Assembly: GCA_951812955.1 (NCBI GenBank)
Contig: OX638340.1
Coordinates: 224,001 to 288,000, forward strand
Length of the DNA: 64,000 bases
Direction: 5' to 3'
Source of the DNA: an uncultured Gemmatimonadota bacterium
GTDB taxonomy: Bacteria > JAAXHH01
Below are positions 1,766 through 61,031 of this stretch, one piece after another (the first letter of the stretch is position 1; the number at the start of each line of letters is the position of its first letter). The position numbers and the translations under genes were made by a program. The notes beneath the pieces are model-generated. The model did no database searches. It saw only the letters and a list, made by a program, of their open reading frames with translations, and was not told the origin of the DNA.

Positions 1766-2584
1766 ATGCTGAACAACCGTCGCATCATGATACTTGGAAC
1801 TGGAAACATGGGATCCTGCCTGCTCGGCGGCATACGCAGAGCAAATCTCGTTCCCCCGGAACAAATCGTGATTACCGGTCTGCGGTCCGATTACCTCAAG
1901 GACCTGGCGGAGCAATGGGATGTTAGCTGGACAACGGACAACCGCAAAGCGGTGCGTGAAGCGGATATCGTCATGATCTGCCTCAAGCCCCAGGCCATAG
2001 AACGCGTGGTGGATCAAGTACGCGACTGTCTCCGTCCCGATCAGCTGCTGATTACGATCGCGGCGGGAATGACGACGACCTCGATTACGGAAATGGCACG
2101 CACCGAGAATCCTGTCGTCCGGGTGATGCCGAATATCGCCTCCCTGGTGGACGAGGGGGCTGCGGCTATTTCGCCGGGCACGTACGCCGGCGAAGAACAT
2201 AAACAGATTGCAGCCCGGATCTTCCAGGCGGTAGGGCGCGTCGTTTTCGTGAACGAGCATCTTCTGGACGCGGTAACCGGTCTCAGCGGCAGCGGCCCCG
2301 CCTATATATATATGGTAATAGAGGCATTGTCAGACGGCGGTGTGAAAATGGGCCTGCCCCGAGATGTCGCCCTGGACCTCGCGGCCCAGACCGTACTTGG
2401 CGCCGCGCGGCTTATTCAGGAGACCGGCAAGCATCCCGCGGTGTTGCGCGACCAGGTACTTACGCCGGGCGGCACCACCATCGCAGCGGTACATGACCTG
2501 GAAATCCGCGGATTGCGAAGCATGTTGATCAGCGCGGTCGAGACCGCCACGCGGCGATCAAGAGAACTCCGAGACGGCAATTAG
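1766..2584 (+). CDS. proC: pyrroline-5-carboxylate reductase
   Basis: N-terminal NADP Rossmann motif (IMILGTGNMGSCLLGG). The C-terminal dimerisation domain shows conserved ...GLSGSGPAYIYMVIEAL...LTPGGTTIAA, typical of P5CR. Confidence 0.85.
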   Translation: MLNNRRIMILGTGNMGSCLLGGIRRANLVPPEQIVITGLRSDYLKDLAEQWDVSWTTDNRKAVREADIVMICLKPQAIERVVDQVRDCLRPDQLLITIAAGMTTTSITEMARTENPVVRVMPNIASLVDEGAAAISPGTYAGEEHKQIAARIFQAVGRVVFVNEHLLDAVTGLSGSGPAYIYMVIEALSDGGVKMGLPRDVALDLAAQTVLGAARLIQETGKHPAVLRDQVLTPGGTTIAAVHDLEIRGLRSMLISAVETATRRSRELRDGN

Positions 2585-2908
2585 ACTCTCCCCGGGTCTT
2601 TTGAGAAACAGGGCCGGATGCTGCCGGCAGGCCGGCGCGCCCTGAAATGAATCGTCCGGATTCGGCAAGACCCCATCGCATTTTAATCCACACAGGCTGA
2701 CAAAAAGGATTTCACGTTCGGGAGGAATCCTCCCGGGGGCGTCTTTGCGCGTGAACGGCGCCATATAGTGCCTGAACCGACGGTATTTCGTAGTATATGG
2801 TGTCAACACCTGATGTGTATCAACACACATATAGTCTTTTGCGCACGTAGGAGTTACGAAGATTCCCTTATCCAAAGGTAAAGAAAATCGATGTAAGTCC
2901 ATTTTTTA

Positions 2909-2937
2909 TTGACAATATGGGGGGTGCTATGTAGTAT
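2909..2937 (+). promoter_or_regulatory. sigma70-type promoter TTGACA-17nt-TAGTAT upstream of mraZ
   Basis: Perfect -35 hexamer (2909-2914), a 17-nt spacer and a TAGTAT -10 (2932-2937). It sits ~125 nt upstream of the mraZ ATG, in the position of Pmra in other bacteria. Confidence 0.6.
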
Positions 2938-2963
2938 AGTGGGTAGAAGTGGGACGAAGTGGG
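2938..2963 (+). promoter_or_regulatory. three direct repeats AGTGGG phased at 10 bp (2938-2943, 2948-2953, 2958-2963): putative MraZ operator
   Basis: The sequence agtgggtagaagtgggacgaagtggg lies immediately after the -10 element. This matches the known architecture of MraZ-binding GTGGG direct repeats with 10-bp periodicity overlapping the mra promoter and transcription start. Confidence 0.55.
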
Positions 2964-3060
2964 TCCCAGAACATCCTGATTACCAAACACTTGTATAGTA
3001 ATCGTAAATAACTACCTCAGGACAGGGTGTTTACTCCTTTGTGTTACAGGGAGATCGTGA

Positions 3061-3501
3061 ATGGTTAACTTCCTGGGTTCATACACCTACACCGTGGACC
3101 ACAAAGGCCGGGTCAATGTCCCTGTGAAGTTTCGCAAGCACATCCGGACCGACGAGGACGACACGCTGATCATCACGCGGGGACTCGATGGATGTCTTTT
3201 CGTCTATCCAATCGACGAATGGGAACAGATCGACACCCGATTGCGAGAACTGCCCGTCACAAGGCAGAACACGCGGATCTTCATCAGGATGCTCTCGTCG
3301 GAGGCCGTGGCAGTCTCCATGGACAAGCAGGGTCGTATCGCCCTTCCCAGGCAGCTGATCGAACGCGCCGGCATTGAAACGGAAGTACTGATCATCGGAA
3401 CGCTTGACCACTTTGAACTCTGGAGTCCCGGGGAGTATGAGAAAGTAATGAACGAATCGGGACATACATACGAAGAGATCGCGGAGTCCCTGTTCGTTTG
3501 A
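3061..3501 (+). CDS. mraZ: transcriptional regulator MraZ
   Basis: Two tandem MraZ/SpoVT-AbrB-like halves, each with the DxxxR signature (TVDHKGRVNVP; SMDKQGRIALP). First gene of the dcw cluster. Confidence 0.9.
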   Translation: MVNFLGSYTYTVDHKGRVNVPVKFRKHIRTDEDDTLIITRGLDGCLFVYPIDEWEQIDTRLRELPVTRQNTRIFIRMLSSEAVAVSMDKQGRIALPRQLIERAGIETEVLIIGTLDHFELWSPGEYEKVMNESGHTYEEIAESLFV

Positions 3502-4511
3502 TGCTTTCCACCCATGCGGCTCCGTTAAATCACGGAATGATCATGGGTCTGGCAGACAAGTACAATCATGTTCCCGTTCTTGCGGGGAAGGTAGCCGAGA
3601 TGCTCGTCTGGAACACTTCCGGCACATATGTAGACGGTACAATCGGCGGAGGCGGTCACGCGCGCGCCATACTGGAGCGGCTTGGCGAATCCGGACGGTT
3701 GATCGGGCTGGACAGGGATTCCGAAGCGGTCGGCGCGGCAGGTGCGCGGCTTGCGCGGGGAAGTACTCCTCGCGTGGAGATCCTGCAACGGGACTATACG
3801 GAGTTGGCGTCCGTGCTGGAAGCGAAACGCATCTCCCGGGTGGACGGACTGATTCTGGACCTTGGCATTTCGTCCTACCAGGTCGATACGCCTGATCGCG
3901 GATTTTCATTCCAGTCCGACGGTCCGCTCGACATGCGCATGGACCGGGGCAAGCCGTTGACCGCGGCTCATATCGTCAACGAAAGTTCCCGGGATGAACT
4001 CGAGCGGATCATACGGGAATACGGCGAGGAACGGCAGGCGCGCGGCGTCGCGAACGCGATCGTCAGAACCCGCGACAGGGCGCCGCTGACTTCCACCGCC
4101 AGGCTGGCTGATACGATCAGGTCCGCGGTCCGCCGCAGATGGGCGGTCAAGTCCTGCGCCCGGGTGTTCCAGGCACTAAGAATCGCCGTCAACCAGGAAC
4201 TGGACAAATTGAAATTGGTTTTGGATACCATGCTTCCCCTCCTGAGCAACCGGGGTCGTTTCGGTATCATATCCTATCATTCACTGGAAGATCGACTGGT
4301 CAAGCGGACATTCGAAACCTGGGCATCGGACTGCATTTGTCCGCCCGGCTTTCCACAGTGCGTCTGCCAGCACAGGCGCGTTGCCGTGCTACATACGAAA
4401 CGGGCCGTCGTGGCCTCCCGTGAAGAAGTCGCGAAAAACCCGCGGGCGCGAAGCGCCAGGTTCCGGATGATTGAACGTTTGCCCGACGATCAACACGCAC
4501 ACTGTAATTAA
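3498..4511 (+). CDS. rsmH: 16S rRNA (cytosine1402-N4)-methyltransferase RsmH/MraW. The start is uncertain: TTG at 3498, ATG at 3501 or at 3537.
   Basis: HVPVL and GTxGGGGH motifs, then SYQVD and DMRMD motifs typical of RsmH. It overlaps the mraZ stop codon. Confidence 0.85.
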   Translation: MMLSTHAAPLNHGMIMGLADKYNHVPVLAGKVAEMLVWNTSGTYVDGTIGGGGHARAILERLGESGRLIGLDRDSEAVGAAGARLARGSTPRVEILQRDYTELASVLEAKRISRVDGLILDLGISSYQVDTPDRGFSFQSDGPLDMRMDRGKPLTAAHIVNESSRDELERIIREYGEERQARGVANAIVRTRDRAPLTSTARLADTIRSAVRRRWAVKSCARVFQALRIAVNQELDKLKLVLDTMLPLLSNRGRFGIISYHSLEDRLVKRTFETWASDCICPPGFPQCVCQHRRVAVLHTKRAVVASREEVAKNPRARSARFRMIERLPDDQHAHCN

Positions 4512-4541
4512 CATCTTTAATTCAGAACGGAGAAGCCCGTC

Positions 4542-4964
4542 ATGAAATCCGCTATCAGATTCCGCAGCGACCACTCGTACATGGGACAATTGATCGGCTG
4601 GATCGGTACGATCGCGCTCGTAACGTCGCTGAGCATGGGTTACATCTGGCACCAGGTGGAAACCACGACGCTGATGCGGGAGATCATCGAACTGAAGGAT
4701 CAGAAAGAAGCCTTGAAAAAGGAAAGCGCCTATTTGCACGTGCGGATCGTTCGGCTCGCGGAACAGCTTCGGAACGAAACAGTGGCCATGAGTCGTTTCG
4801 ATTTGGAACACGCTGCAGTCGGACAGGTTGTGAACATGGATGCGGTAGACACGGCCATGGCTTTGGCCAACACCGAGCCCGATGTAAGGGCGATTGCGGG
4901 TAAGCCGGCGGATGACGCGTTGATCCTTGCCTCGTACCCTGCGGCTCACGTGGATACCCGATGA
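4542..4964 (+). CDS. ftsL: FtsL-like cell division protein (single TM helix plus coiled coil)
   Basis: 140 aa with one N-terminal TM segment (LIGWIGTIALVTSLSMGYIW) followed by a heptad-like coiled coil (REIIELKDQKEALKKESAYLHVRIVRLAEQL). It lies between rsmH and ftsI, where ftsL normally sits. Primary-sequence similarity is weak, as is typical for FtsL. Confidence 0.55.
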   Translation: MKSAIRFRSDHSYMGQLIGWIGTIALVTSLSMGYIWHQVETTTLMREIIELKDQKEALKKESAYLHVRIVRLAEQLRNETVAMSRFDLEHAAVGQVVNMDAVDTAMALANTEPDVRAIAGKPADDALILASYPAAHVDTR

Positions 4965-4976
4965 GGGAATACCGTT

Positions 4977-7040
4977 ATGGTCGCGAAATCCTGTATGCGC
5001 AGACTGACCCTCCTGGCCGTAGTCGGAGTGGTACTGTGTGCAGGTCTCGGGATTCGTATCGCGCTAATTCAGATTCGCGACGGCGAGGCCTACAGGCAGC
5101 GGGCGCGTGACCAACAGCACCGGGTGGTCACCATCGACCCCCGCCGGGGCCGTATCTTCGACCGCAACCGTAACACGCTGGCGCTGAGTGTCGAGTTCGA
5201 CTCCTTCGGTATCCAGGATCTCGACCGGGACCGGTACGGCCCCTCCGATATCGGAAACCTGGCCGTTCAGCTTTCCCAGATCACCGGCGAAGATCCCCAG
5301 CATATCATCGACCGGGTTTCCGAGACCTCCGACTTCAGGTATTTGGTCCGCTGGGTGAATCCCGAAACCAGTGAACGGATTAGAAGCCTCTCCACCTATC
5401 CCTTGTTCGAACCCTATATACGCACGCAAAAGGAAGCCAGGCGGGTCTATCCCTATCGGACCGCGGCCGGCCAGATACTGGGTTTCAGCGTAGATGGTTC
5501 CGGTCGGGCCGGGTTCGAAATGGAACACAACCAGCTGTTATCTGGTTTAGAAGGGTACAGCGTGGTGCAGATAGACGCTCAGCGACGGGCGTATTCGTGG
5601 CTTGATGCCTACCAGAATCCGGCGGAGAACGGCGCGGACGTCGTACTGACGATCGATATCGCTGCCCAGGTTGCCGCGGAAGAGGCGCTGGAGGAGGCGA
5701 TAGCGTGGCACGGGGCGCTCGGCGGTATGGTCATCATGATGGATCCGGCGAACGGCGACATACTGGCCATGGCCAGTTCTCCGGACTTCGATCCGAATAC
5801 ACCGGGACGGTTTCCATTCGAAGCCCAGAAGATCAGGCCGGTGGTGGATATCTACGAACCTGGGTCGACTTTCAAGATCGTAGCAGCGACCGCGGCCCTG
5901 GAGACCGGTGCGTTCTCTCTTGAGGACCGGATCGATACCAGTGCAGGCCGGATCGAGGTGGGCGCGCAGACGATATCAGACCACGAGGTCTACGACGAAC
6001 TGAGCGTACGGGAAGTCATCGAGCGGTCCAGCAACGTGGGTACCGTCAAAATCGCCCTGGCCCTCGGTGAAAAGGAGTTTTTCAAATACACCCGGGCCTT
6101 CGGTTTCGGCATGAAAACGGGCGTGGCCCTCCCGGGCGAGGCAAGAGGTATCCTGCATAAACCGGCCGTTTGGTCCATGTCCACGCTTCCCGCCATGGCC
6201 ATCGGCTACGGGGTTTCCGTCACCGGAGTACAACTCGCGACCGCCTATTGCGCCGTAGCCAACGGAGGCCTGCTCCTGCGACCTCGGATAATCAGATCCA
6301 TCCTGAGAAACGACGGTTCCGTGCAGACCGAACCGCGGTTTGTCGTTCGCAGGGTGATGAAAGAGGAGACCGCCGAAGCCTTACTGGGCGTATTCGCCGG
6401 AGTGGTGGACCAGGGTACGGGCACAAAGGCCGCGGTAACGGGTTTCAAGGTCGCGGGAAAGACCGGCACAGCCTGGAAGACCCGTGAGGACGGCAGGGGA
6501 TACACCAGGAATTACCGGTCGTCGTTTGCCGGGATGTTTCCGGCGAATGACCCGGAAATCGTCGTGCTCGTCATGATCGACGAGCCGAAGAAACGCGGCT
6601 TCTATGGCGGATCCGTGGCCGCGCCGGTTTTCAACAAAATCGTTCGCCGCCTCGTCCATCTGCCGGACGGACCCGTTGAGTCGGTTCCCGAATCCGATGA
6701 CGGCCTGCCCCTTCACCTGGCCTCCATCAAGCCTGGTTCGTCCTCGGGCAGCAGACCGCAGGGTTCTGCTACGGCATCGGGAGGACCGATGACTGGAGAC
6801 TTACTGCAGCTTGGCGGCCACTGGGAAATCGAACGTCCCGGTACCGGGGCGGAACAGGCACCGGTGCCGCTTCCGTCGGTGACAGGCATGAGCGTTAGAG
6901 AAGCCGTAAGGACCCTGGCCGAACAGGGTATTGAAGCAACCATAGTCGGTAAGGGCTACGTCCGACGCCAGATTCCTTCACCGGGCCGCATGGTCTATCC
7001 CGGCGATCGATGCCTCATCGAATGTGGTCCCTACAACTAG
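4977..7040 (+). CDS. ftsI: peptidoglycan D,D-transpeptidase FtsI (class B PBP3) with a C-terminal Ser/Gly-rich linker and one PASTA domain
   Basis: N-terminal TM anchor. Transpeptidase motifs STFK (PGSTFKIV), SxN (SSNVG) and KTGT (AGKTGTA). C-terminal ...PLPSVTGMSVREAVRTLAEQGIEATIVGKGYVRRQIPSPGRMVYPGDRCLIE fits the PASTA fold. Confidence 0.85.
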   Translation: MVAKSCMRRLTLLAVVGVVLCAGLGIRIALIQIRDGEAYRQRARDQQHRVVTIDPRRGRIFDRNRNTLALSVEFDSFGIQDLDRDRYGPSDIGNLAVQLSQITGEDPQHIIDRVSETSDFRYLVRWVNPETSERIRSLSTYPLFEPYIRTQKEARRVYPYRTAAGQILGFSVDGSGRAGFEMEHNQLLSGLEGYSVVQIDAQRRAYSWLDAYQNPAENGADVVLTIDIAAQVAAEEALEEAIAWHGALGGMVIMMDPANGDILAMASSPDFDPNTPGRFPFEAQKIRPVVDIYEPGSTFKIVAATAALETGAFSLEDRIDTSAGRIEVGAQTISDHEVYDELSVREVIERSSNVGTVKIALALGEKEFFKYTRAFGFGMKTGVALPGEARGILHKPAVWSMSTLPAMAIGYGVSVTGVQLATAYCAVANGGLLLRPRIIRSILRNDGSVQTEPRFVVRRVMKEETAEALLGVFAGVVDQGTGTKAAVTGFKVAGKTGTAWKTREDGRGYTRNYRSSFAGMFPANDPEIVVLVMIDEPKKRGFYGGSVAAPVFNKIVRRLVHLPDGPVESVPESDDGLPLHLASIKPGSSSGSRPQGSATASGGPMTGDLLQLGGHWEIERPGTGAEQAPVPLPSVTGMSVREAVRTLAEQGIEATIVGKGYVRRQIPSPGRMVYPGDRCLIECGPYN

Positions 7041-11196: not shown

Positions 11197-12607
11197 TCGG
11201 CAAAATACGGACATTGCATGCCGTCACGCGCATTTCATCGGCATAGGCGGAATCGGAATGAGCGGTCTGGCTGAACTGATGCTCGAATTTGGTTACGAAG
11301 TGAGCGGATCGGACCTGCGGCGAACACAGCTGACGGACCGGCTCAGCGGTCTCGGAGCGTCCGTCTTCCACAGCCACGACCCGGGCAACGCGGCGGGTGC
11401 GGACCTGATCGTGTACTCTTCCGCAATTCCGGAGGACAATCCCGAACTCGAAGCGGCCCGTAGGCATGGCGTACGTTTGGTCCGCCGCGCCGAACTGCTC
11501 GGTATACTGATGCGCGGGGCACGAAGTATCGCCGTGGCGGGCGCTCACGGCAAGACGTCCACGTCGGCGATGATCGTAAACGTACTGGCCGCCGCGGGCC
11601 TGGATCCGACCGCCGCCATAGGCGGGATCATGACGGAGAACGGATCCAACGTCCGGCACGGCAGCGGATCGTGGATGGTCGCGGAAGCCGATGAATATGA
11701 TCGTTCGTTCCATGCGCTGGCTCCGACTACGGCAGTAATCACATCGGTGGACGCAGACCACCTGGAATACTACGGATCGCAGGAAGCCATAGATGCAGCC
11801 TTCACTACTTTCGCCCATCTCGTACCCGAGGACAGGCCGTTGTTCGTGTGTGCCGACGACCCGGGCATCCGCAGGATCAGTCCCGCGCTGCGCCGACGGC
11901 TGGTGACCTACGGCCTTTCCGGTCACGCCTGCATCCGGGCAGACCGGGTGGCGACCGAAGGCTGGAGCATTTCCGCCGAAGTATTCGTGCGGGACGTTCC
12001 GGCCGGCCGGCTGGTTTTGCCTCAGCCCGGCGAGTGCAACCTGGTCAATGCCCTGGCGGCCATCAGTGTGGCCGACTACCTCGAAATACCCGTCGAGCGG
12101 ACCCTGGCGGCCCTGGCGGATTACCGGGGACTGAGGAGACGTTTCGAAGTACTCGGAAGGATTCAAGGTGTGGAGGTAGTGGACGACTATGCCCACCATC
12201 CCGTCGAAATCGAGGCGGCGTTGCTCGCCCTGTCAAACGCGGGAGCCCGGCGCATGTTCGTCATATTCCAACCCCACCTCTTCAGCCGAACGCAGCATCT
12301 GTGCCGCGAATTCGGGCGCGTACTCGGGCGGTTTCCCGCATATCGGAAGATCGTTACGGACGTGTACCCCTCCAGGGAAACGCCGCGGGAGGGGGTTACG
12401 GGTGAGTTGATCGTCAGGGCGTCGAGCGCATTCGGAGGAGGCGTCGCGTACATGCCGGACAAGAACCGCATCGCGACCACCCTGGTGGACGATCTCGAGA
12501 AAGGGGACATGGTGCTGACGCTCGGCGCGGGGGACATCGACGAAGTAGGACGGCAGGTTTGCGAACTACTTAGGAAACGCGGGGTCAGGTCCCATGCATG
12601 TATATGA
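11189..12607 (+). CDS. murC: UDP-N-acetylmuramate:L-alanine ligase MurC
   Basis: N-terminal HFIGIGGIGMSGLAE (the MurC Rossmann signature) and Mur ligase P-loop AGAHGKTSTS. It overlaps the ftsW stop within ATGACTGA, so there is no murG between ftsW and murC. Confidence 0.9.
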   Translation: MTDRQNTDIACRHAHFIGIGGIGMSGLAELMLEFGYEVSGSDLRRTQLTDRLSGLGASVFHSHDPGNAAGADLIVYSSAIPEDNPELEAARRHGVRLVRRAELLGILMRGARSIAVAGAHGKTSTSAMIVNVLAAAGLDPTAAIGGIMTENGSNVRHGSGSWMVAEADEYDRSFHALAPTTAVITSVDADHLEYYGSQEAIDAAFTTFAHLVPEDRPLFVCADDPGIRRISPALRRRLVTYGLSGHACIRADRVATEGWSISAEVFVRDVPAGRLVLPQPGECNLVNALAAISVADYLEIPVERTLAALADYRGLRRRFEVLGRIQGVEVVDDYAHHPVEIEAALLALSNAGARRMFVIFQPHLFSRTQHLCREFGRVLGRFPAYRKIVTDVYPSRETPREGVTGELIVRASSAFGGGVAYMPDKNRIATTLVDDLEKGDMVLTLGAGDIDEVGRQVCELLRKRGVRSHACI

Positions 12608-13520
12608 AATGCTCAGTGGGTCGATCGCTTCCGAACGGCTGCGGTGCGACGAGGGCCTTGATCGGCATTCTACTTACCGGGTCGGAGGGCCGGCGGACGT
12701 GATGTGCCTGCCTCGAACCCGATCGGAACTGCTGGATGTCGTCACCGCTGCAAGCGTGCGCGGGATACCCTGGCTGGTGGTGGGAAACGGGAGCAATATC
12801 CTCTTCTCGGATGACGGATTCCGCGGTCTGGTGATCAAGATAAGAGGCGCGGTCCCGGTGGAGGGGACGCTGTGGCAATTGGCGCAGGAAGGTGATTTCA
12901 TCCGGGCGGGCGCGGGCGTCAGCCTGCCTCGACTCGCCAGGTCGGCGGCGGCCGCGGGACTGAGCGGACTGGAGTTCTGCACCGGGATACCCGGCGTGGT
13001 TGGCGGATCCATCCGGGGCAACGCCGGCGCTCACGGGAGTGATCTGGGCGCTGTAGTGGAGTCTGTGGAAATGATTCGGCCATCCGGTGACATCGTGACG
13101 ATCAGGGCTTCGGAGGCCGGGTTTTCCTATCGGGAAAGTGAAATTGAGCCGGACAGCATCGTGACCGGGGCGGTGTTCAGGCTGACGCCGGATGAACCGG
13201 AGAACGTGCAAGAACGCATAAGGGTCTTCACCGAATACAGAAAGCGCACGCAGCCGTCCTCCGATCAGAGTGCCGGGTGCATGTTTAAAAACCCGGTGGG
13301 CGACAGTGCCGGAAGGCTGATCGACGCGGCCGGGTGCAAAGGACTTCAGGTCGGCGGATCGAGGGTGTCCGAAATCCACGGTAATTTCGTAATCAACCTG
13401 GGTGGTGCAACGGCGTCGGACGCGTTGCGGTTGATCGACCTGGTTCGCGAACGGGTCTTCGAGCGAACCGGCGTAGCCCTCGAACTCGAGGTGCGCGTGA
13501 TGAAATCGGGCGTGGTATGA
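12594..13520 (+). CDS. murB: UDP-N-acetylenolpyruvoylglucosamine reductase MurB
   Basis: FAD-binding PCMH-type domain (YRVGGPADVM...GNGSNILFSD) and the C-terminal MurB domain (GCMFKNP, RVSEIHGNFVIN). Confidence 0.85.
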   Translation: MHVYEMLSGSIASERLRCDEGLDRHSTYRVGGPADVMCLPRTRSELLDVVTAASVRGIPWLVVGNGSNILFSDDGFRGLVIKIRGAVPVEGTLWQLAQEGDFIRAGAGVSLPRLARSAAAAGLSGLEFCTGIPGVVGGSIRGNAGAHGSDLGAVVESVEMIRPSGDIVTIRASEAGFSYRESEIEPDSIVTGAVFRLTPDEPENVQERIRVFTEYRKRTQPSSDQSAGCMFKNPVGDSAGRLIDAAGCKGLQVGGSRVSEIHGNFVINLGGATASDALRLIDLVRERVFERTGVALELEVRVMKSGVV

Positions 13521-14359
13521 ATTCGAACAGGATGCGTTTCACATTCCGTTTGATGACCGGACTTGCGATTGTCCTGCTCGCCTCAGGTACGACGGCCGGA
13601 CTGGTCATGGGAGGCCTGGCGCTGTCCAGGTGGACTGAGAACTCGCCGGTTTTCAATCTGGACGCCATCGTCGTCGAGGGGAACAGGATCGCTGGCAAGG
13701 AGGACATCATCCGGGTTTCCGGCCTCGAAATGGGCAAGAACATCTGGTCGGCCGACCTCGAGGAGACCGGACGGCGACTCATGCTCGACACGCGGTTCGA
13801 TCGGGTCGCGCTGAGCAGGAGGTTACCCGGTACCGTCGTCGTTCGGGTGAAGGAACTGCAGCCCATCGCCATTGTACAGCTGGATCGCCTCTACGGAGTC
13901 TCCGAACGCGCCGAGCTGATCCCGCTTTCACCGGGAAACGGGTTGCCGGACCTTCCCGTGATTACCATCGACGCTTCAGGTTTCCGGCCGGAGTCAGGCG
14001 CCGCGGAATCGCGGGACCTTCATTTCGAAACGCTCAGGGAAGCCATGCTGGTCGATCCCGAGATGGGCCGCGCCCTCTACCTCATGCGGGTGCTCAGAGC
14101 GATGTCTCCGGGGATGTACGACGAGTTATCCGAGATTCACATGTCCAGACCGAATGACCCGATCGCCTACATGGTGGAAGGCGGATTGGCCATACGGTTC
14201 GGAACGGGACACTACCCCCGGAAGATCGAGATGCTCAGACGAACTGTGGAGCGGTTGGAAGCCGACGCCATCAGGACCCGGTTGATCGATCTGAGGTTCA
14301 AGGACCAGGTTATCGTCCGCCCGGTTGTATCCAGCCGGTCCCTGGACAGGCGTTCGTAG
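13517..14359 (+). CDS. ftsQ: cell division protein FtsQ (TM plus POTRA domain)
   Basis: Single TM helix then a POTRA-like segment (IVVEGNRIAGKEDIIRVSGLEMGKNIWSADLEE) and a FtsQ beta domain. It occupies the position between murB and ftsA and overlaps the murB stop (ATGA), so no ddl is present. Confidence 0.75.
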   Translation: MNSNRMRFTFRLMTGLAIVLLASGTTAGLVMGGLALSRWTENSPVFNLDAIVVEGNRIAGKEDIIRVSGLEMGKNIWSADLEETGRRLMLDTRFDRVALSRRLPGTVVVRVKELQPIAIVQLDRLYGVSERAELIPLSPGNGLPDLPVITIDASGFRPESGAAESRDLHFETLREAMLVDPEMGRALYLMRVLRAMSPGMYDELSEIHMSRPNDPIAYMVEGGLAIRFGTGHYPRKIEMLRRTVERLEADAIRTRLIDLRFKDQVIVRPVVSSRSLDRRS

Positions 14360-14377
14360 CGGTAAAAGGAGTTTCGC

Positions 14378-15598
14378 ATGGCCCGTGAATGTATAGCTGC
14401 ACTCGACCTGGGCACGACCAAAACGGTCGTGTTGATCGGCGAGATGACTGACGCCGGCCTCCGGATCCTGGGCGAGGGTACGTGCCGGTCCCAGGGCCTC
14501 CGGCGAGGCGTCCCGGTCAATATGGACGAAGCTGCCCGTTCGATCGCGGAGACGATTCAGGTCGCGGAACAGGCGGCCGAAGCCAGGATAAGCGAGGTCT
14601 ATGTCGGGTGTTCCGGCGATCACATCGAAAGTGTCAACAGCAGAGGCGTCGTGGCCATTTCGTCCGACGGGGGACGGGGCGTGACGCGTAAGGACGTTGC
14701 TCGCGCCTTCGATTCCGCGACGGCCCTGAGGATTCCCATGGACCGCCAGGTCATCCATGTGCTCGCACAGGACTATATCGTGGACGACCAGTGCGGTATC
14801 CGCGACCCGTGCGGCATGTCCGGCGTCCGGCTTGAAGTGCTGGTGCACATCGTGACCGGGGCGATCACCTCGTTGCGGAATGTACGCAATTGCATCATGC
14901 AGTCCGGAATTCAAGTCCGGGAAATCGTCCTCGATTCGCTCGCCGCGAGCCAGGCGGTGCTCACATCCGACGAAAAAGAGCTGGGTGTCGTTCTCCTCGA
15001 CCTCGGCGGGGGCACCACGAACATCGCGCTGTTCCAAGACGGCAGCATCCGGCATTCGTCGGTTATTCCCGCCGGAGGAATCAACCTTACGAACGATATC
15101 GCGATCGGTCTCCGCACCCCGCATGAAGATGCCGAACGAATAAAGCGGCACTACGCGAGCGCGGTATATGTCCGCTCGGAAAGGGACAACATGATTGAAG
15201 TACCCGGGGTCGGCGGACGCGAGTCGCGTATGGTGACGCGGGAGGAATTGGCGTTCGTGGTCGGCCCACGGATCAAGGAGCTTCTGGTCCTCGCTCGGGA
15301 GACGATCAGGAACAGTGGATTCGAACACCTGGTCCGCACCGGTATCGTTATCACAGGGGGCGGTGCGCTGATGCCGGGTATTGCGAAACTGACGGAACAG
15401 GTCTTCGGCATGTCCGCGAAAATCGGTGCGCCGGAGGAAGTTCACGGCCTGGCCGATGATGGGAACGCCCCCCTGTACGCAACCGGTGTAGGCTTGTTGC
15501 GCCACGCAGCGGACAGCTCGTCAGGAAAAAAGTGGCACCATGATACGGAAGGAGGATGGCTGGATCGTGTGAGAAGCCGGATCGTAGCCATGTTGTAG
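14378..15598 (+). CDS. ftsA: cell division protein FtsA
   Basis: Actin/Hsp70-fold motifs IAALDLGTTKTVVLIGE, DLGGGTTNIALF and VITGGGALMPGI. Lies directly upstream of ftsZ. Confidence 0.9.
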   Translation: MARECIAALDLGTTKTVVLIGEMTDAGLRILGEGTCRSQGLRRGVPVNMDEAARSIAETIQVAEQAAEARISEVYVGCSGDHIESVNSRGVVAISSDGGRGVTRKDVARAFDSATALRIPMDRQVIHVLAQDYIVDDQCGIRDPCGMSGVRLEVLVHIVTGAITSLRNVRNCIMQSGIQVREIVLDSLAASQAVLTSDEKELGVVLLDLGGGTTNIALFQDGSIRHSSVIPAGGINLTNDIAIGLRTPHEDAERIKRHYASAVYVRSERDNMIEVPGVGGRESRMVTREELAFVVGPRIKELLVLARETIRNSGFEHLVRTGIVITGGGALMPGIAKLTEQVFGMSAKIGAPEEVHGLADDGNAPLYATGVGLLRHAADSSSGKKWHHDTEGGWLDRVRSRIVAML

Positions 15599-55284: not shown

Positions 55285-56022
55285 TTGCATACCAGCGATC
55301 GCATAACGCAATCGGATTTCGAGTATCTCCGGCTGCAGGATACCGGGCCGGTGGGCATATCATTTTCCGATGTGTATCCCGATTACCATCCACAGGATCG
55401 CGTGGGGTTTGTTTGCCCCCGGCTGGAAGACGGTGTGCTCGGGCTGTGCGCTGCCGTCCTGGGCCTGGCGACCGGGTTCTACGATCGCCTCCGGTCGAAA
55501 GGGAACGAATTCTTCGACTATCCACTGCACCATGCCTTCATCGGAGGGAGTGAGGCGCGGGTACGCACGCGAAGCGGAGATCTGGACCTGTCCACCTGGG
55601 AGATGGGAAGCGCCTGGGGATGGCTGGACGTCTGGCCGGAGACCAACTGGCATCTCTGCCCGGCGACTCCGGAATGTATGCTCGAAGCGTTGTTTAGACA
55701 CCAGGTCAACCGGGTATGTTGGCCGGCTTCGTTCATGCCGGGTTCCGTAGAGAAACCGCTTTCGCATTACGCGTATAAGCTGTTGAGCGGCAGGCTGAAA
55801 TCAGTCTGGTATTACGACTGCGGGGACGGGAACCTGGAAGTCCGTGCATCGGGTTCCGCGGCGGACGTCATCCGGGAGAGCCTGGAACGTCTTCCCCAGG
55901 GTGCAGCGGTTAGGGACCACGCGTCGGAAATATCATTCGGTCCATGGATTGGTAACCATTTCAAAACAGTGAAACCCCAGGCATTTCTAGAAGATATGGC
56001 GGTCTGCTTCACTGATGATTGA
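55285..56022 (+). CDS. hypothetical protein, family not recognised
   Basis: 245-aa ORF with good coding periodicity, Trp- and Cys-containing, codirectional with its neighbours. No motif was identified by eye. Confidence 0.5.
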   Translation: MHTSDRITQSDFEYLRLQDTGPVGISFSDVYPDYHPQDRVGFVCPRLEDGVLGLCAAVLGLATGFYDRLRSKGNEFFDYPLHHAFIGGSEARVRTRSGDLDLSTWEMGSAWGWLDVWPETNWHLCPATPECMLEALFRHQVNRVCWPASFMPGSVEKPLSHYAYKLLSGRLKSVWYYDCGDGNLEVRASGSAADVIRESLERLPQGAAVRDHASEISFGPWIGNHFKTVKPQAFLEDMAVCFTDD

Positions 56023-56122
56023 ACCAGTGGCAGGACCTGAAATCAGATTTCGAACGAACTACAGAAGGCCTGTCATGATGACCGTCAGGACCGGCCGCTG
56101 TGCAAGAAAGGAGAAGTGATTC

Positions 56123-57523
56123 ATGGTGGACAGATCCTTCCTGTTCGATGACGACGCCATGCGCGACTTTATCGTAAACGGCTACCACGTGATCAACGTG
56201 GATCAGCCGGTTGCGCTCCACGACGGGATTTACGAGAAGACGAAGGCGATCATCGACGATGACGGGAATCCGGGAAACAACCTGTTGCCGCGTGTGCCCG
56301 AGATCCAACAGGTCTACGACGATCCTGCTGTTCAAGGCGCACTGACGAGCCTGCTCGGACCGGACTACGTCATGCACGCTCACCGCCACCCGCACGTAAA
56401 CCCGCCGAACAGCCGTGGAGGCAGCTGGCACAAGGACAGTTACTGGGGTTACACCAAGGTGCGGGATCACCATCCGCGGTGGATCATGGCCATGTACTAC
56501 CCCCAGGACACCCCGGTTGAAATCGGACCGACGGGGGTAATACCCGGCAGCCACTACTTCGAGTCCCGCGAAGAGACCGTAGGAGGGAACGGGTCGGTCC
56601 CAGATGGATTCCCCGCGAGCGGCAAGGCGGGAACCATTACCATCATACACTTCGACCTCTGGCACCGGGCGTTTCCGAACGCAACGGACAAGGTCCGCTA
56701 TATGATGAAATTCCAGTTTACGAGAATGTCAGAGCCGAACCGCCCCTGCTGGAACAATCAACGAGATGAAATCGACCTGGGCGACCTGTCGGACGATCCC
56801 CGGAGCGCCATGTGGCGGAACATGTGGCACTGGCTTGCCGGAAACGGCTCGGCGGGAGCCAGGCGGGAAGGCGAGGAACACGTCGAGGCGCTTGCCCGGG
56901 ACCTGACGCATGAACTCGAACAGAAGCGTTTGCACGCGGCCTATAACCTGGCCGAGTGCGGAGAATCCGCGCTTCCGCATTTCCTCGAAGCACTGCAACA
57001 CGAAAGGGATGAAGTCCGGCGTGAAGCGTGTTATGGACTAAGCGCGCTGGGTACCGCCGCCGTAGATCCGTTGGTCTCTCTGCTCGGACACGAGAACGAA
57101 CGCGTCAGGGGATACGCGGTTTACGCCCTTGGAGACATCCGGCACCACAACCCATCGGTTACGGGGCACCTCGCGGGTCATACAGACGACCCATCGCCTT
57201 TTGTCCGGCAGAACGTGGCCGATGCACTGGGCCAGATCAGGCTGGCTGCGGATTCGTCCGTTCCCGCGCTGATCGGTATGATGAAGGACGAGGATGAGCA
57301 GGTTCGGTCCAGAACCGCCTATGCGCTGGCCCGATTCGGAGTCGAGGCTCAGACGGCCGTTCAAGACCTTGCGGATGCGTGCTACGATGAAAACCGGTAT
57401 GTACAGGGGCATGCCGCCGTTGCCCTCGAACAGATCGGCACGCCAGAAGCCCTGCGCACGCTGCTGCACTGGCTGCAGGCCTCGCGGTGGTGTCCACTGA
57501 CGACGGCGAAGAGCACGTTTTAG
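56123..57523 (+). CDS. PhyH-like Fe(II)/2OG dioxygenase domain fused to a C-terminal HEAT (PBS-lyase-type) repeat domain
   Basis: N-terminal ~230 aa carry a PhyH-type facial triad (HKDSY ... HFDLWHRAF). The C-terminal ~200 aa contain at least five ~31-aa HEAT-like repeats (for example DEVRREACYGLSALG, NERVRGYAVYALGDI, SPFVRQNVADALGQI, DEQVRSRTAYALARFG, NRYVQGHAAVALEQIG). Confidence 0.7.
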   Translation: MVDRSFLFDDDAMRDFIVNGYHVINVDQPVALHDGIYEKTKAIIDDDGNPGNNLLPRVPEIQQVYDDPAVQGALTSLLGPDYVMHAHRHPHVNPPNSRGGSWHKDSYWGYTKVRDHHPRWIMAMYYPQDTPVEIGPTGVIPGSHYFESREETVGGNGSVPDGFPASGKAGTITIIHFDLWHRAFPNATDKVRYMMKFQFTRMSEPNRPCWNNQRDEIDLGDLSDDPRSAMWRNMWHWLAGNGSAGARREGEEHVEALARDLTHELEQKRLHAAYNLAECGESALPHFLEALQHERDEVRREACYGLSALGTAAVDPLVSLLGHENERVRGYAVYALGDIRHHNPSVTGHLAGHTDDPSPFVRQNVADALGQIRLAADSSVPALIGMMKDEDEQVRSRTAYALARFGVEAQTAVQDLADACYDENRYVQGHAAVALEQIGTPEALRTLLHWLQASRWCPLTTAKSTF

Positions 57524-57617
57524 CGGTCGGCACACCCCGATTTAATCCGTGGTCTTGCGCTGTCCATGCGGTCCGCCAGCCCATGCGGTCCGCCAGGTAC
57601 GAGTTCACTCCCGCCTG

Positions 57618-59588
57618 CTACCAGTCGTGTATCATGTGGCCCTGTCCGGGATAGAACAAGGCATCCACAAAGAACGACAGAACGATACCCAGCGTGTAAC
57701 CGAGCAGGACGCCAAGGAAGAACCGCTGACCCGTGCGGTAGGTGCTGGTCCCGACCTTCAGCAGAATGAACTTGGCGAGCCATGCGAGGAAGACGGACAG
57801 GATCGAGTCCCGGATATTGCTGGCGAAACAAATGGCGAAACCCACCGGGGCGAGGGGCCACCAGACCAGCCAGTGCCGGAGTTTCAGCAGCAACAGGAAG
57901 GTCGCCGCGCCAGCCGCCATGAACCAGGGCTCGTTCTGACCCAGGGACAGCGGGTTCTTCATCCAGGTTACGATCTCGTCGTAGTAGTTCTTGTTGAGCC
58001 CGTCGAACGCCCCGCCTCCGAAGTTATATGCTCCGATCGCATAGCCCGACTGTATCGAGTAAGCCAACGCCGTGACCATGCTGACGAGAAAGGTGGCGGC
58101 GAGTACGAGCAGCAACCCTTTCTTCCTCGGCCAGAATCCGTCCGCCAGGCGATCTGCCAGCACGACCGAACCCATACCCAGCCCGCGCCAGTTCCGCGCA
58201 TACGCGCTGGCCAGGCCCAGTGCCGTAAGACTTGGCGCCGATACGTTCCCTGAACCCAGGGACAGCACCGTGATCTGGTGCGCGTTCACGGGCAAATCGA
58301 GGAACACCACCCCTGTTTCGGCGATTACCTTTGTCGTGCCGAAGTATAGAATGAACAGAAATGCCAGGAACACCGCCATCACCGAAAACGCCAGGCCGGA
58401 CTGGTACAGCCATGCGCAGATAAATACGGATCCAAGCAGGAATCCGATCACGGCGGTCCTGTAGGACACGAGTTCCTTTGTATCGTCCAGTCCGGAGTCC
58501 CGCCCAATCGCTTTCTTGACTACGCCCGCCAGGTGCCGCCTGGCGGCCCAGAGACTGTAACCCACGTACACCAGGAATCCGCCGAAAAACTGTGCGTTGA
58601 CGCCGCCGCTGCCGCCGGGACCGCTGCTGGCCGTGTTGAGTCCTATGTAATTCAGTGCGCCGATTTCGAGCAGCCCCAGCATGAAGAAGACCCAGATGCT
58701 CAGCAGGATATCTACGTTGATAAAGTAGCCGAAGCCGAGCATGTAGGGGCTGATACGCAGGGGAATGGAGGGGAACATCGGACTCAATTGGAGCGGAGTC
58801 TCGAAGAAGGTGCCGACGGGGAGCTGCGGCACGATATGGGCGAAGGACACGATATTCCAGAGTGCGATGGCCAGCGCGAGGATGAACCCGATCTGGAACA
58901 GGCGGTCGTAGACGAGTCCTGGCCAGCGGCCGGGAGACTGGTCCCCGGCTATGAGTTCGAGGGGTACCTGGACGAGGGGAAAAGTTAGCCGCTCGTACTC
59001 CACCCACTGTTTTCTGAATATGGTAGCCACGCAGGCGCCGACGACGAATATCGCGACGAAAAAGCTCATCCACCAGGCGACGGGGATGATCCACGGGGAC
59101 CAGGGTATGGCGCCTCCCGGAGGCAGTCCTTCGTAAAACCACCCCATGGCGTTGTTCTGGTTGCTCGCCACGAGCCATTCCGGCAGAAAGGGGTGGAAGA
59201 GCTCCACCCACTGGTTTTCCGGCTGGGCGAAGTAAAAGGGCGTCGATATGATGGTCAGGAAGTACGACACGAAGGCCTTGCCGGGTATGAGGCTCGAAAT
59301 CAGCAGGATGCAGAAGATCAGCGCGAGTTCTCTGCCGGTGAATGCGGCCCGTTGGGACATACCGCGTACCAGGGGATTGTACACGAAGGTGACGAGCAGA
59401 AAGAGCGCCAGGGCGGAAATGGGCAGGTGGGCCACCGACATGCGGGACGTGTGCAGGATATAGGTCCCGTACGTCACCCAGATGTTGAGGATGATGGCCA
59501 GGACCAGTCCCGTGGCGAGTGACCTCGACGTGATCACGGAGGCTGGCGGGGATTCCCTTGTCGGTATATGCTTGGTTGTGTCAGTCAA
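57618..59588 (-). CDS. large polytopic membrane protein (656 aa, about 14 or more TM helices), family unknown. TTG start.
   Basis: Hydrophobic segments throughout, aromatic-rich, with a Gly-rich loop SSGPGGSGG. No transporter signature recognised. Confidence 0.6.
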   Translation of the reverse strand: MTDTTKHIPTRESPPASVITSRSLATGLVLAIILNIWVTYGTYILHTSRMSVAHLPISALALFLLVTFVYNPLVRGMSQRAAFTGRELALIFCILLISSLIPGKAFVSYFLTIISTPFYFAQPENQWVELFHPFLPEWLVASNQNNAMGWFYEGLPPGGAIPWSPWIIPVAWWMSFFVAIFVVGACVATIFRKQWVEYERLTFPLVQVPLELIAGDQSPGRWPGLVYDRLFQIGFILALAIALWNIVSFAHIVPQLPVGTFFETPLQLSPMFPSIPLRISPYMLGFGYFINVDILLSIWVFFMLGLLEIGALNYIGLNTASSGPGGSGGVNAQFFGGFLVYVGYSLWAARRHLAGVVKKAIGRDSGLDDTKELVSYRTAVIGFLLGSVFICAWLYQSGLAFSVMAVFLAFLFILYFGTTKVIAETGVVFLDLPVNAHQITVLSLGSGNVSAPSLTALGLASAYARNWRGLGMGSVVLADRLADGFWPRKKGLLLVLAATFLVSMVTALAYSIQSGYAIGAYNFGGGAFDGLNKNYYDEIVTWMKNPLSLGQNEPWFMAAGAATFLLLLKLRHWLVWWPLAPVGFAICFASNIRDSILSVFLAWLAKFILLKVGTSTYRTGQRFFLGVLLGYTLGIVLSFFVDALFYPGQGHMIHDW

Positions 59589-59620: not shown

Positions 59621-59686
59621 CAGCAGGCCGTCGCGGCGTATGTCCTTGCGTCAGCAGGCCGTCGCGGCGTATGTCCTTGCGTCAGG
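59621..59686. repeat. tandem 2.1 x 31-bp direct repeat (cagcaggccgtcgcggcgtatgtccttgcgt)
   Basis: Copies at 59621-59651 and 59652-59682 are identical, and a partial third copy follows. The repeat abuts the sulfatase stop codon and lies upstream of the membrane-protein start. Confidence 0.9.
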
Positions 59687-61031
59687 CAGACTGGCGTTCC
59701 CGCCATTCGACCTCCATGGGATCGGGGATGGCGTAGGGTTTGACGCGTTGTTCGTGCAGCCACTCCGACAGGTAGTGATCCATGCGTTGCTGGATTTCCG
59801 GCCGTTCCAGGGCCAGGTTGTACGTCTGATTCGGGTCGTTACGCATATCATACAAGGCCACTGGATCGAACCGGTAACCGAAGTCGTCGTACGTCCTGAC
59901 CATGAGATGGCCGGGTGTCCGCACCGCCCGTTGCAACGTGTACAGGCCGTGACCCCAGACCAGGAAGTCGTGCAGGTGGCAGCGTCCGGTCGCGAGTCCT
60001 TCCGCGAAAGACCGGCCGTCATAGTATTCCGGTACTTCCCCGCCAATCAGGTCGATCAGCGTGGCGCTGAAATCTACATTGTATAGCAGGTCGTCACAAG
60101 AGGATCCTGGCGGCGTAGTCCCCGGCCACTTGATGATCAGCGGGACCCGGTGTATGCATTCGTCGGCGCAGACGTGATCCCCGTAGATGCCGTGCTCTCC
60201 CATGGCCTCGCCGTGATCCGCCGAGACGATGACCGCCGTGTCGTCCAGGCTGCCCAGGGCGTCCAGCACCTGCTCCACGTGATGGTCGGCGTACCGGATC
60301 TCCGCGTCGTATCCGGTCACCAGGTGATTCAGGTCGTCCGTGTTCCGGATGGCGTCCGGCATATTCGGCGTGGGACTGGGCCGGTTCTGGGGAAAGAGGT
60401 GGGACGCGGTGAACCAACCGTCGATGTCCTGGTGGCCGCGGATCGCTTCGTTGTCCGGCCAGCTCACCGCCGGCGGATGGGCCGTCATACGTTCGAACCG
60501 GTCGCGGGGGGCTTCGTAAACCCGGTGCGGGTCCCAGTAGTTGATGTACAGGAAGTAATCGTCCCGGTCGCCGTTCGCGGCGATCCATTTCAGTACGGCT
60601 TCGTTGACCTCGTCCGCCGTCTCGTCCCCCGTCTTCAGGTTGGGCGAATGGAACTCCGACCAGCCCAGCCCGAACCAGGTCGCGCAGTGCCGGGTGGGGA
60701 AGTTGGAGAAGCAGACCGTGTCGTAGCCGTGCTGGCGCAGCCGTCTTTGCACCAACTGGTTCCGCTCGTCGGGCCCGCCGTAGCGCTGCTCCAGGATGTG
60801 AAGCCTGGAAGCGGGACCGCCGTGGGTCACCACGCCGTTGTTGATCCCGAAACGGCCGGTTATCCAGCCGTGCCGCGAAGGCATGCAGGGAGAGTCTGCG
60901 CAGTAGTACCGGTCGAACCGCATCCCCTGCGCGGCGATTTCATCGATGGCGGGCGAGGTGGGCCGGCCGTAGCCGTAGCAACCCAGGTGGTCGGGCCTCA
61001 GACTGTCGATGTCGAAATAGACGATGCGCAA
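59682..61031 (-). CDS. Cys-type sulfatase (arylsulfatase family) without a signal peptide. TTG start.
   Basis: N-terminal sulfatase domain begins at residue 2 (RIVYFDIDSLRPDHLGCYG). The formylglycine motif is C-x-P-S-R-xxx-[LI]TGR (SPCMPSRHGWITGR). Confidence 0.8.
   Translation of the reverse strand: MRIVYFDIDSLRPDHLGCYGYGRPTSPAIDEIAAQGMRFDRYYCADSPCMPSRHGWITGRFGINNGVVTHGGPASRLHILEQRYGGPDERNQLVQRRLRQHGYDTVCFSNFPTRHCATWFGLGWSEFHSPNLKTGDETADEVNEAVLKWIAANGDRDDYFLYINYWDPHRVYEAPRDRFERMTAHPPAVSWPDNEAIRGHQDIDGWFTASHLFPQNRPSPTPNMPDAIRNTDDLNHLVTGYDAEIRYADHHVEQVLDALGSLDDTAVIVSADHGEAMGEHGIYGDHVCADECIHRVPLIIKWPGTTPPGSSCDDLLYNVDFSATLIDLIGGEVPEYYDGRSFAEGLATGRCHLHDFLVWGHGLYTLQRAVRTPGHLMVRTYDDFGYRFDPVALYDMRNDPNQTYNLALERPEIQQRMDHYLSEWLHEQRVKPYAIPDPMEVEWRERQSA

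Follow-up and report, generated by a model that had tools for sequence, protein, structure and literature searches.

A 64,000-nucleotide stretch of DNA from an uncultured Gemmatimonadota bacterium (contig OX638340.1, positions 224,001 to 288,000; hereafter, the window) carries a gene for a 466-aa protein in which an oxygenase domain of the phytanoyl-CoA dioxygenase (PhyH) type is followed by an array of HEAT repeats. It is almost certain that the product is an active Fe(II)/2-oxoglutarate (2OG) oxygenase and that its fusion to HEAT repeats is genuine and conserved. A mechanism in which the HEAT solenoid would present a ligand to the PhyH active site is tentatively put forward and is weighed below against the alternatives. 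The gene and its two halves were delimited as follows:

56123-57523, + strand: gene of the PhyH-HEAT fusion, coding for 466 aa and ending in a stop codon (open reading frame list; Pfam PhyH and HEAT_2 matches)
56107-56113, + strand: strong Shine-Dalgarno sequence AAAGGAG, ending 9 nt 5' of the ATG (read from the sequence)
56123-56857, + strand: PhyH-type Fe(II)/2OG oxygenase domain, the catalytic half (aa 1-245)
56873-57484, + strand: HEAT solenoid, a cap helix and six repeats of the phycobilisome (PBS)/alphaRep type (aa 251-454)

Domain architecture and family distribution

At their N-termini, homologs align to M1 of the fusion protein. Both halves are real by their Pfam matches, which lie far beyond chance: PhyH (PF05721) was found at aa 59-192 (55.5 bits, cut-off 22, E=1.3e-14), HEAT_2 (PF13646) at aa ~250-450 (111.5 bits, cut-off 27.7, E=2.4e-32), and HEAT_PBS (PF03130) matched the C-terminal half (E=4e-14). 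An earlier, sequence-only reading of the window had proposed a PhyH::HEAT fusion with C-terminal repeats of the PBS type, and the profile scan bore out both points with matches above threshold.

Homologs were searched for in 5.8 billion proteins. The best 120 matches listed were full length (452-508 aa), except for one partial sequence of 365 aa, with identity falling to 41%. All 120 combined PF05721 with PF13646; in the databases they are named "HEAT repeat domain-containing protein" or "phytanoyl-CoA dioxygenase". Among the matches listed, those nearest to the fusion protein of the window (88-98% identity) came from metagenome-assembled genomes labelled Gemmatimonadetes or Latescibacterota. 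When one genome per species was scanned, at least 558 species-level genomes were found to encode a relative. The host lineages included Latescibacterota, Gemmatimonadota, Poribacteria (many of them from sponges), Armatimonadota, Capsulimonadales, Planctomycetota and Paenibacillaceae (including Paenibacillus), and Armatimonas rosea (Armatimonadota) is a cultured host among them.

The catalytic half alone was also compared with 1.84 billion cluster representatives, which yielded 278 clusters at E<=1e-30. A HEAT array was present in 106 of the best 150 representatives, and most of the others were fragments. The fusion had been called unusual; judged by these sequence matches, it is instead the hallmark of a large, conserved bacterial family that spans several phyla. 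The remark that no characterised member was known held true, as no paper mentioning the PF05721+PF13646 combination was found in the literature and no solved chain in the Protein Data Bank (PDB) covers both the PhyH and HEAT halves. The architecture is therefore widespread and visible in databases, yet the family is uncharacterised.

Catalytic domain

Residue conservation was scored in an alignment of 26 relatives (44-89% identity) and then in 139 non-redundant relatives. Three elements of the catalytic half were mapped to the window:

56429-56437, + strand: HxD iron ligands H103-K-D105 (H103 in 139/139, D105 in 137/139; aligned to the HxD motif of EctD)
56663-56698, + strand: distal iron ligand H181 through the 2OG-binding Arg R192 (WHRAFPNATDKVR; conservation and EctD alignment)
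56372-56401, + strand: His-rich beta-strand M84-H-A-H-R-H-P-H-V-N93 (strand in the model; conservation)

In the phmmer alignment to the ectoine hydroxylase EctD (E=0.012, 18 bits), H103 and D105 pair with the HxD motif, H181 with the His of "tmHgs" and R192 with the following Arg. H181 (the His of "WHR") was invariant (139/139) and R192, which equals H181+11, was kept in 138/139. H176, the first His of "HFDLWHR", was found in only 119/139, with Asn in 11. H181 was taken as the distal ligand, rather than H176, because of this difference in conservation and because of the EctD alignment. The sequence-only reading had described an intact facial triad made of HKD and "HFDLWHR": the triad is indeed intact and HKD correctly supplies H103 and D105, but the distal ligand is the second His of the longer motif and not the first. 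On conservation and alignment, the iron triad is H103/D105/H181 and R192 is the Arg for 2OG binding. Since all four residues are intact, the fusion protein should be active as an Fe(II)/2OG oxygenase. The PhyH superfamily features found were the profile match above threshold, the HxD...H triad, the Arg about 11 residues past the distal His and a double-stranded beta-helix (DSBH) fold.

Further features conserved family-wide were the EGNPGNN.LP loop (aa 47-56) and a YYPQD motif; the loop (EGNPGNN) and the His-rich strand (MHxHRHxHxN) were conserved in every alignment of the family. The strand ends 10 residues ahead of the HxD iron ligands and contains four near-invariant His and an Asn (H87 in 138/139, H91 in 139/139), together with R88 (133/139). 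Because H85, H87, H89, H91 and N93 alternate along the strand, they should share one face. This face presumably forms part of the wall of the substrate pocket, and the strand might be a binding site for an anionic group or for a second metal.

Predicted structure and HEAT solenoid

The AlphaFold2 model, calculated with the family alignment, had a mean predicted local distance difference test score (pLDDT) of 89.3 and a predicted template modelling score (pTM) of 0.89. For a two-domain chain, this pTM means that the domain arrangement is confidently predicted as fixed, and a rigid two-domain protein is predicted. In the model, the N-terminal domain is rich in beta structure and is followed by the Trp-rich linker helix, a cap helix and six helix hairpins (251-454); only the loop 151-159 and the tail 457-466 were disordered. 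The linker and the tail correspond to:

56804-56836, + strand: Trp-rich linker helix, aa 228-238, with W235 and W237 (helix in the model; conservation)
57485-57520, + strand: conserved flexible C-terminal tail R455-W-C-P-L-T-T-A-K-S-T-F466 (RWCPLTTAKSTF; conservation; model pLDDT <50)

Both linker Trp residues were conserved (W235 in 131/137, W237 in 134/137). Where the tail was present, its Arg, Trp and Cys were found in 103/107, 101/107 and 96/103 sequences, respectively, and residues 457-466 had a pLDDT <50 in the model. A tail that is nearly invariant in different phyla yet unpacked suggests a mobile lid, a gate or a docking peptide; C-terminal lids occur in some other PhyH-fold enzymes. 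The remote members of the family have the tail variants RWD, RWF and HWC: the Cys is swapped for Asp or Phe, and the Arg-Trp and a terminal aromatic residue persist.

To score the concave face, the HEAT repeats were registered on the alphaRep consensus. In the alphaRep design, positions 18, 19, 22, 23, 26 and 30 form the hypervariable concave face. The mean frequency of the top residue was 0.44 at these positions and 0.62 at structural HEAT positions. Hot spots were found at both ends of the solenoid (E266, 0.86, and Y274, 0.89, in repeat 1; R425, 0.72, and Y426, 0.84, in repeat 6), with intermediate conservation at R300, Y304 (0.63), E367 (0.62), N397 and R404. By these frequencies, the concave face is partly fixed, as would suit a conserved ligand or a contact within the molecule. 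In sub-clades with proteins of 490-508 aa, one additional HEAT repeat is inserted directly after the linker (family alignment columns 265-300; loci L020-L031 and Poribacteria loci). The length of the solenoid therefore varies, and the first and last repeats stay conserved.

The HEAT half was acidic in all 26 sampled members (isoelectric point 4.4-6.1). This bears on a nucleic acid-directed oxygenase, in which the HEAT array would bind tRNA, rRNA or DNA and the PhyH domain would oxidise a modified nucleoside in situ, for instance by removing a 2'-O-methyl group. HEAT-like domains do bind nucleic acid in QueG and AlkD; the acidity of the array argues against binding of that type and RNA-modification genes do not recur in the neighbourhoods. 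Nucleic acid binding by the array was thus disfavoured, and this alternative is considered very unlikely.

An analogy had also been drawn with deoxyhypusine hydroxylase (DOHH), a HEAT-repeat protein that hydroxylates a protein and shows weak repeat-level similarity to the PhyH-HEAT protein. DOHH is a di-iron enzyme with His-Glu ligand motifs inside its HEAT repeats and without a DSBH domain. In contrast, no His reached 50% conservation in the HEAT half of the family (aa 246-452, 139 sequences), so that a DOHH-like di-iron site within the repeats was ruled out, and the chemistry resides in the PhyH domain, which has a complete iron/2OG site of its own. AlphaRep and CpcE were also much closer structural matches to the HEAT half than DOHH. 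The analogy was consequently dropped, and a DOHH-like enzyme with a second metal or catalytic site formed by the HEAT repeats can be practically discounted.

Genomic neighbourhood

Neighbouring open reading frames were clustered over 83 loci (82 plus the window segment), which fell into 20 lineage groups at 65% identity. Three neighbours in the window were followed up:

55285-56022, + strand: up245, an orphan 245-aa protein encoded 100 bp upstream of the PhyH-HEAT gene, on the same strand
57618-59588, - strand: DUF6785/DUF6784 membrane protein, predicted oligopeptide transporter (OPT)-fold transporter, convergent neighbour (Pfam E=6.6e-115)
59682-61031, - strand: Cys-type sulfatase, motif CMPSRHGWITGR, without signal peptide (Pfam sulfatase domain from residue 3)

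The up245 gene has a TTG start, and its product has an invariant MHTS N-terminus and the motifs FPDYHPQDR, FFDYPxH, WGWLDVWPETNW and RLKSVWYY. The 48 homologs found are all named "hypothetical", and searches against Pfam (with single sequences and with 20 aligned members) and the PDB (by sequence and by profile) returned no match; up245 is therefore flagged as a new orphan family. It usually lies directly 5' of the PhyH-HEAT gene, with a gap of 3-100 bp, and the pair is kept in contigs with differing flanks. The most divergent homolog (locus L089) does not adjoin a PhyH-HEAT gene. Taken together, up245 is a likely, clade-specific partner of the PhyH-HEAT protein.

The DUF6785 gene adjoins the family gene in 2 of the 20 lineage groups, in two unrelated arrangements. 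In a Poribacteria clade it is adjacent in 11 of 13 loci, divergently oriented, separated by a gap of 184-540 bp or by small insertions, and encodes a protein of 27% identity. At E<=0.1 the DUF6785 protein of the window matched only DUF6785 and DUF6784 in Pfam and no OPT profile, it had no sequence match in the PDB, and an exact-sequence look-up found no record. Its AlphaFold model (pLDDT 87) was searched with Foldseek: the only match was barley Yellow Stripe 1, of the OPT superfamily, over the whole length (template modelling scores TMq 0.66/TMt 0.71, E=2e-7), and the next matches had E>0.01. On the strength of this whole-length fold match, DUF6785/DUF6784 is predicted with high confidence to have the OPT transporter fold, an assignment made here for a family that was not mentioned in any paper found in the literature. 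Characterised OPTs move oligopeptides, glutathione or amino acid-derived metal chelates. A DUF6785 gene was also paired with a PhyH gene in loci L085 and L086. This pairing was set aside as weak evidence: with an identity of only 19% (E=0.16), that PhyH protein is a member of another subfamily, and PhyH genes are abundant in those genomes.

Several other observations concern these neighbours. In Poribacteria, the PhyH-HEAT/DUF6785 pair is surrounded by beta-propeller genes (WD40 and PD40) and by genes for secreted LamG (Laminin_G_3) proteins, both kinds arranged in tandem (at 2093-5636 and 12592-14650 in locus L046, and in L055 and related Poribacteria loci); "eukaryote-like" repeat proteins such as WD40, PD40 and LamG are typical of sponge symbionts. 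In the window, the space separating the convergent PhyH-HEAT and DUF6785 genes contains the 16-nt direct repeat CCATGCGGTCCGCCAG twice on the + strand (57564-57579 and 57581-57596), with a period of 17 nt. No convincing intrinsic terminator was found between these two genes; the promoter scan gave no promoter-like sites, and terminator-like sites were not above shuffled expectation.

The sulfatase gene shares its strand with the DUF6785 gene and lies 94 bp upstream of it, and this spacing, together with the missing signal peptide, suggests a cytoplasmic sulfatase co-transcribed with the transporter. Its proximity raises an alternative in which the PhyH-HEAT enzyme would be a sulfatase maturase: the Cys of the C-x-P-x-R motif would be beta-hydroxylated and would then lose H2S to become formylglycine, with the HEAT groove holding the unfolded segment. 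The chemistry appears feasible for a 2OG hydroxylase, the Cys-type sulfatase lies 2 kb away in the window, and in Armatimonas a sulfatase gene is directly downstream of the family gene. A sulfatase was found nearby in just 2 of the 20 lineage groups (the syntenic clade of the window and Armatimonas), however, which is not above expectation in sulfatase-rich genomes, and it was rejected as a general association. In one metagenomic contig, genes with the formylglycine-generating enzyme (FGE)-sulfatase domain (PF03781) flank the up245/PhyH-HEAT pair on both sides, which may be coincidence. Such an arrangement could be read in favour of a maturase, but canonical FGE-domain genes in a related contig leave no obvious need for a further one. 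The maturase alternative is regarded as extremely unlikely.

Candidate mechanism

The explanation preferred here is that a cytoplasmic, catalytically competent Fe(II)/2OG oxygenase is joined rigidly, by the Trp-rich helix, to an acidic HEAT solenoid that would serve as a docking arm. The solenoid would grip an extended, oligomeric ligand, most likely a peptide or protein segment and less likely an oligosaccharide, and would offer one position of it to the PhyH active site for 2OG-dependent hydroxylation, with the C-terminal tail acting as a mobile lid or gate. In the lineage of the window, the co-transcribed up245 would probably be a partner or a substrate of the enzyme, which would also work with a compound carried by the neighbouring OPT-fold transporter. 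The docking-arm mechanism was chosen because the fusion is persistent and rigid, the concave residues are partly fixed and the HEAT surface is acidic, and because of the weak match to the peptide hydroxylase ThoJ, the OPT-fold neighbour, the conserved up245 and the precedent of AspH (PMC6817910). It is a serious possibility that falls a little short of being probable. The more specific proposal, namely that PhyH-HEAT proteins are a widespread bacterial class of peptide or protein hydroxylases, whose groove would capture an extended, probably basic segment under the gate of the RWC tail and whose substrate could be up245 or an oligopeptide moved by the transporter, is unlikely as it stands.

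A number of findings weigh against such a mechanism. Precedents in PF05721 are overwhelmingly small-molecule enzymes, the HEAT concave face is less conserved than the structural HEAT positions or the catalytic core, and among the best 150 cluster representatives there were a few apparently complete relatives of ~250-270 aa without HEAT repeats. No neighbour of the PhyH-HEAT gene was universal across the 20 lineage groups. In other genomes, DUF6785 is accompanied by genes for GH4, TauE, sulfatase, SDR, TIM-barrel, Gfo/Idh/MocA and PhyH proteins, and given the GH4, sulfatase, SDR and TIM-barrel company the OPT fold is no proof of a peptide cargo. The Armatimonas neighbourhood (rhamnosidase, SASA, GDSL, sulfatase and Gfo/Idh/MocA) has the make-up of a catabolic locus for glycans or sulfated compounds, as has the neighbourhood in a Paenibacillaceae genome, with GH95, AraC and a sugar ABC system.

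These findings lead to the chief alternative, an oxygenase of small-molecule or free sugar/glycoside catabolism that would hydroxylate or O-demethylate an imported compound, while the HEAT array, instead of binding substrate, would help the protein to oligomerise, keep it stable or dock it to a transporter or regulator. It draws on the PF05721 precedents and on the closest structural neighbours, which include EctD, KanJ and PHYHD1 as well as AviO1 and EvdO1/2. PHYHD1 and bacterial PhyH members, one of them poribacterial, O-demethylate 2'-O-methyl nucleosides, that is, a sugar O-methyl ether (PMC12709175), and PhyH genes are massively expanded in Poribacteria (PMC3909097); both reports speak for a small-molecule role. 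So do the neighbourhoods rich in sulfatase, GH95, rhamnosidase, SASA, SDR and Gfo/Idh/MocA genes, the lower conservation of the HEAT surface relative to the catalytic half, and a catalytic pocket in which numerous His, Arg, Lys, Tyr and Trp residues are conserved, as would suit a small ligand that is polar or anionic. On the other side, it would be costly to maintain a 200-aa solenoid in rigid register in different phyla, together with fixed concave-face residues at its two ends and a conserved tail, as a mere structural appendage, and no universal catabolic operon partner was found. A small-molecule oxygenase is therefore a possibility to be taken seriously, if on balance a doubtful one.

PhyH-type oxygenases, most of them without an assigned role, are heavily expanded in Poribacteria and in other lineages that are associated with sponges or degrade glycans. 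A discrete, conserved sub-family, present in hundreds of species and with an in-built candidate docking module, therefore offers a tractable way in. Should the HEAT arm recruit a peptide or protein, the family would form a new class of post-translational hydroxylases in bacteria; it would be the first case in the PhyH superfamily of a protein-modifying enzyme guided by a solenoid, and a bacterial counterpart of AspH and collagen prolyl 4-hydroxylase (C-P4H). If the arm recruits an oligosaccharide, or nothing, specificity or regulation would have been added to the PhyH fold in a new manner.

Comparison with known systems

The fusion protein was just 13-20% identical in sequence to the named enzymes of the PhyH superfamily. 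EctD, human PhyH and PHYHD1, KanJ, SptF, TlxI, EasH, AviO1/EvdO and SyrB2 are single-domain proteins of ~250-310 aa or fusions to other enzymes, and none has HEAT repeats. AviO1 and EvdO1/2 are orthoester oxygenases that act on sugars. In NCBIfam, no oxygenase equivalog (e.g. ectoine hydroxylase) was matched at E<=0.1, and only HEAT-type partial matches were obtained.

The HEAT half shares its PBS-lyase-type repeats with CpcE/CpcF, NblB, MpeQ, YibA of E. coli and the alphaRep proteins, which are artificial and derive from this family; here, the array is appended to an oxygenase. Scores against the NCBIfam bilin-lyase models were far from the equivalog cut-offs (CpcF 34/220 bits, CpcE 27.8/330 bits, NblB 34.7/300 bits), and the PhyH-HEAT hosts seen here are not cyanobacteria. 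On equivalog scores or defining motifs, the protein is neither an ectoine hydroxylase nor a phytanoyl-CoA hydroxylase, and it is no bilin lyase and no DOHH.

Among PDB sequences, the catalytic half matched ThoJ (6zyk/6zyl) best, although this match is weak and partial (E=8e-4, aa 64-158). ThoJ is a peptide beta-hydroxylase of peptides synthesised on ribosomes and modified after translation (RiPPs) that acts on dimethyl-His (PMC11575548). Unlike the PhyH-HEAT protein it has no repeat domain, and it is encoded in a RiPP gene cluster, of which there is none at the PhyH-HEAT locus. In Pfam, at E<=0.1, the fusion protein had no match to the catalytic families of Asp/Asn or prolyl hydroxylases.

Parallels in layout are found outside the PhyH superfamily. 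C-P4H has a peptide-substrate-binding domain that resembles tetratricopeptide repeats (TPR), with a groove lined with Tyr. AspH, which has TPR and oxygenase domains, likewise combines an alpha-solenoid with a 2OG oxygenase, and its solenoid helps to bind the protein substrate (PMC6817910). Both differ from the PhyH-HEAT protein in that their solenoids are TPR and not HEAT, and N-terminal and not C-terminal, and in that they are eukaryotic, lumenal enzymes. The PhyH-HEAT protein may nevertheless work like AspH and C-P4H, by analogy and not by homology.

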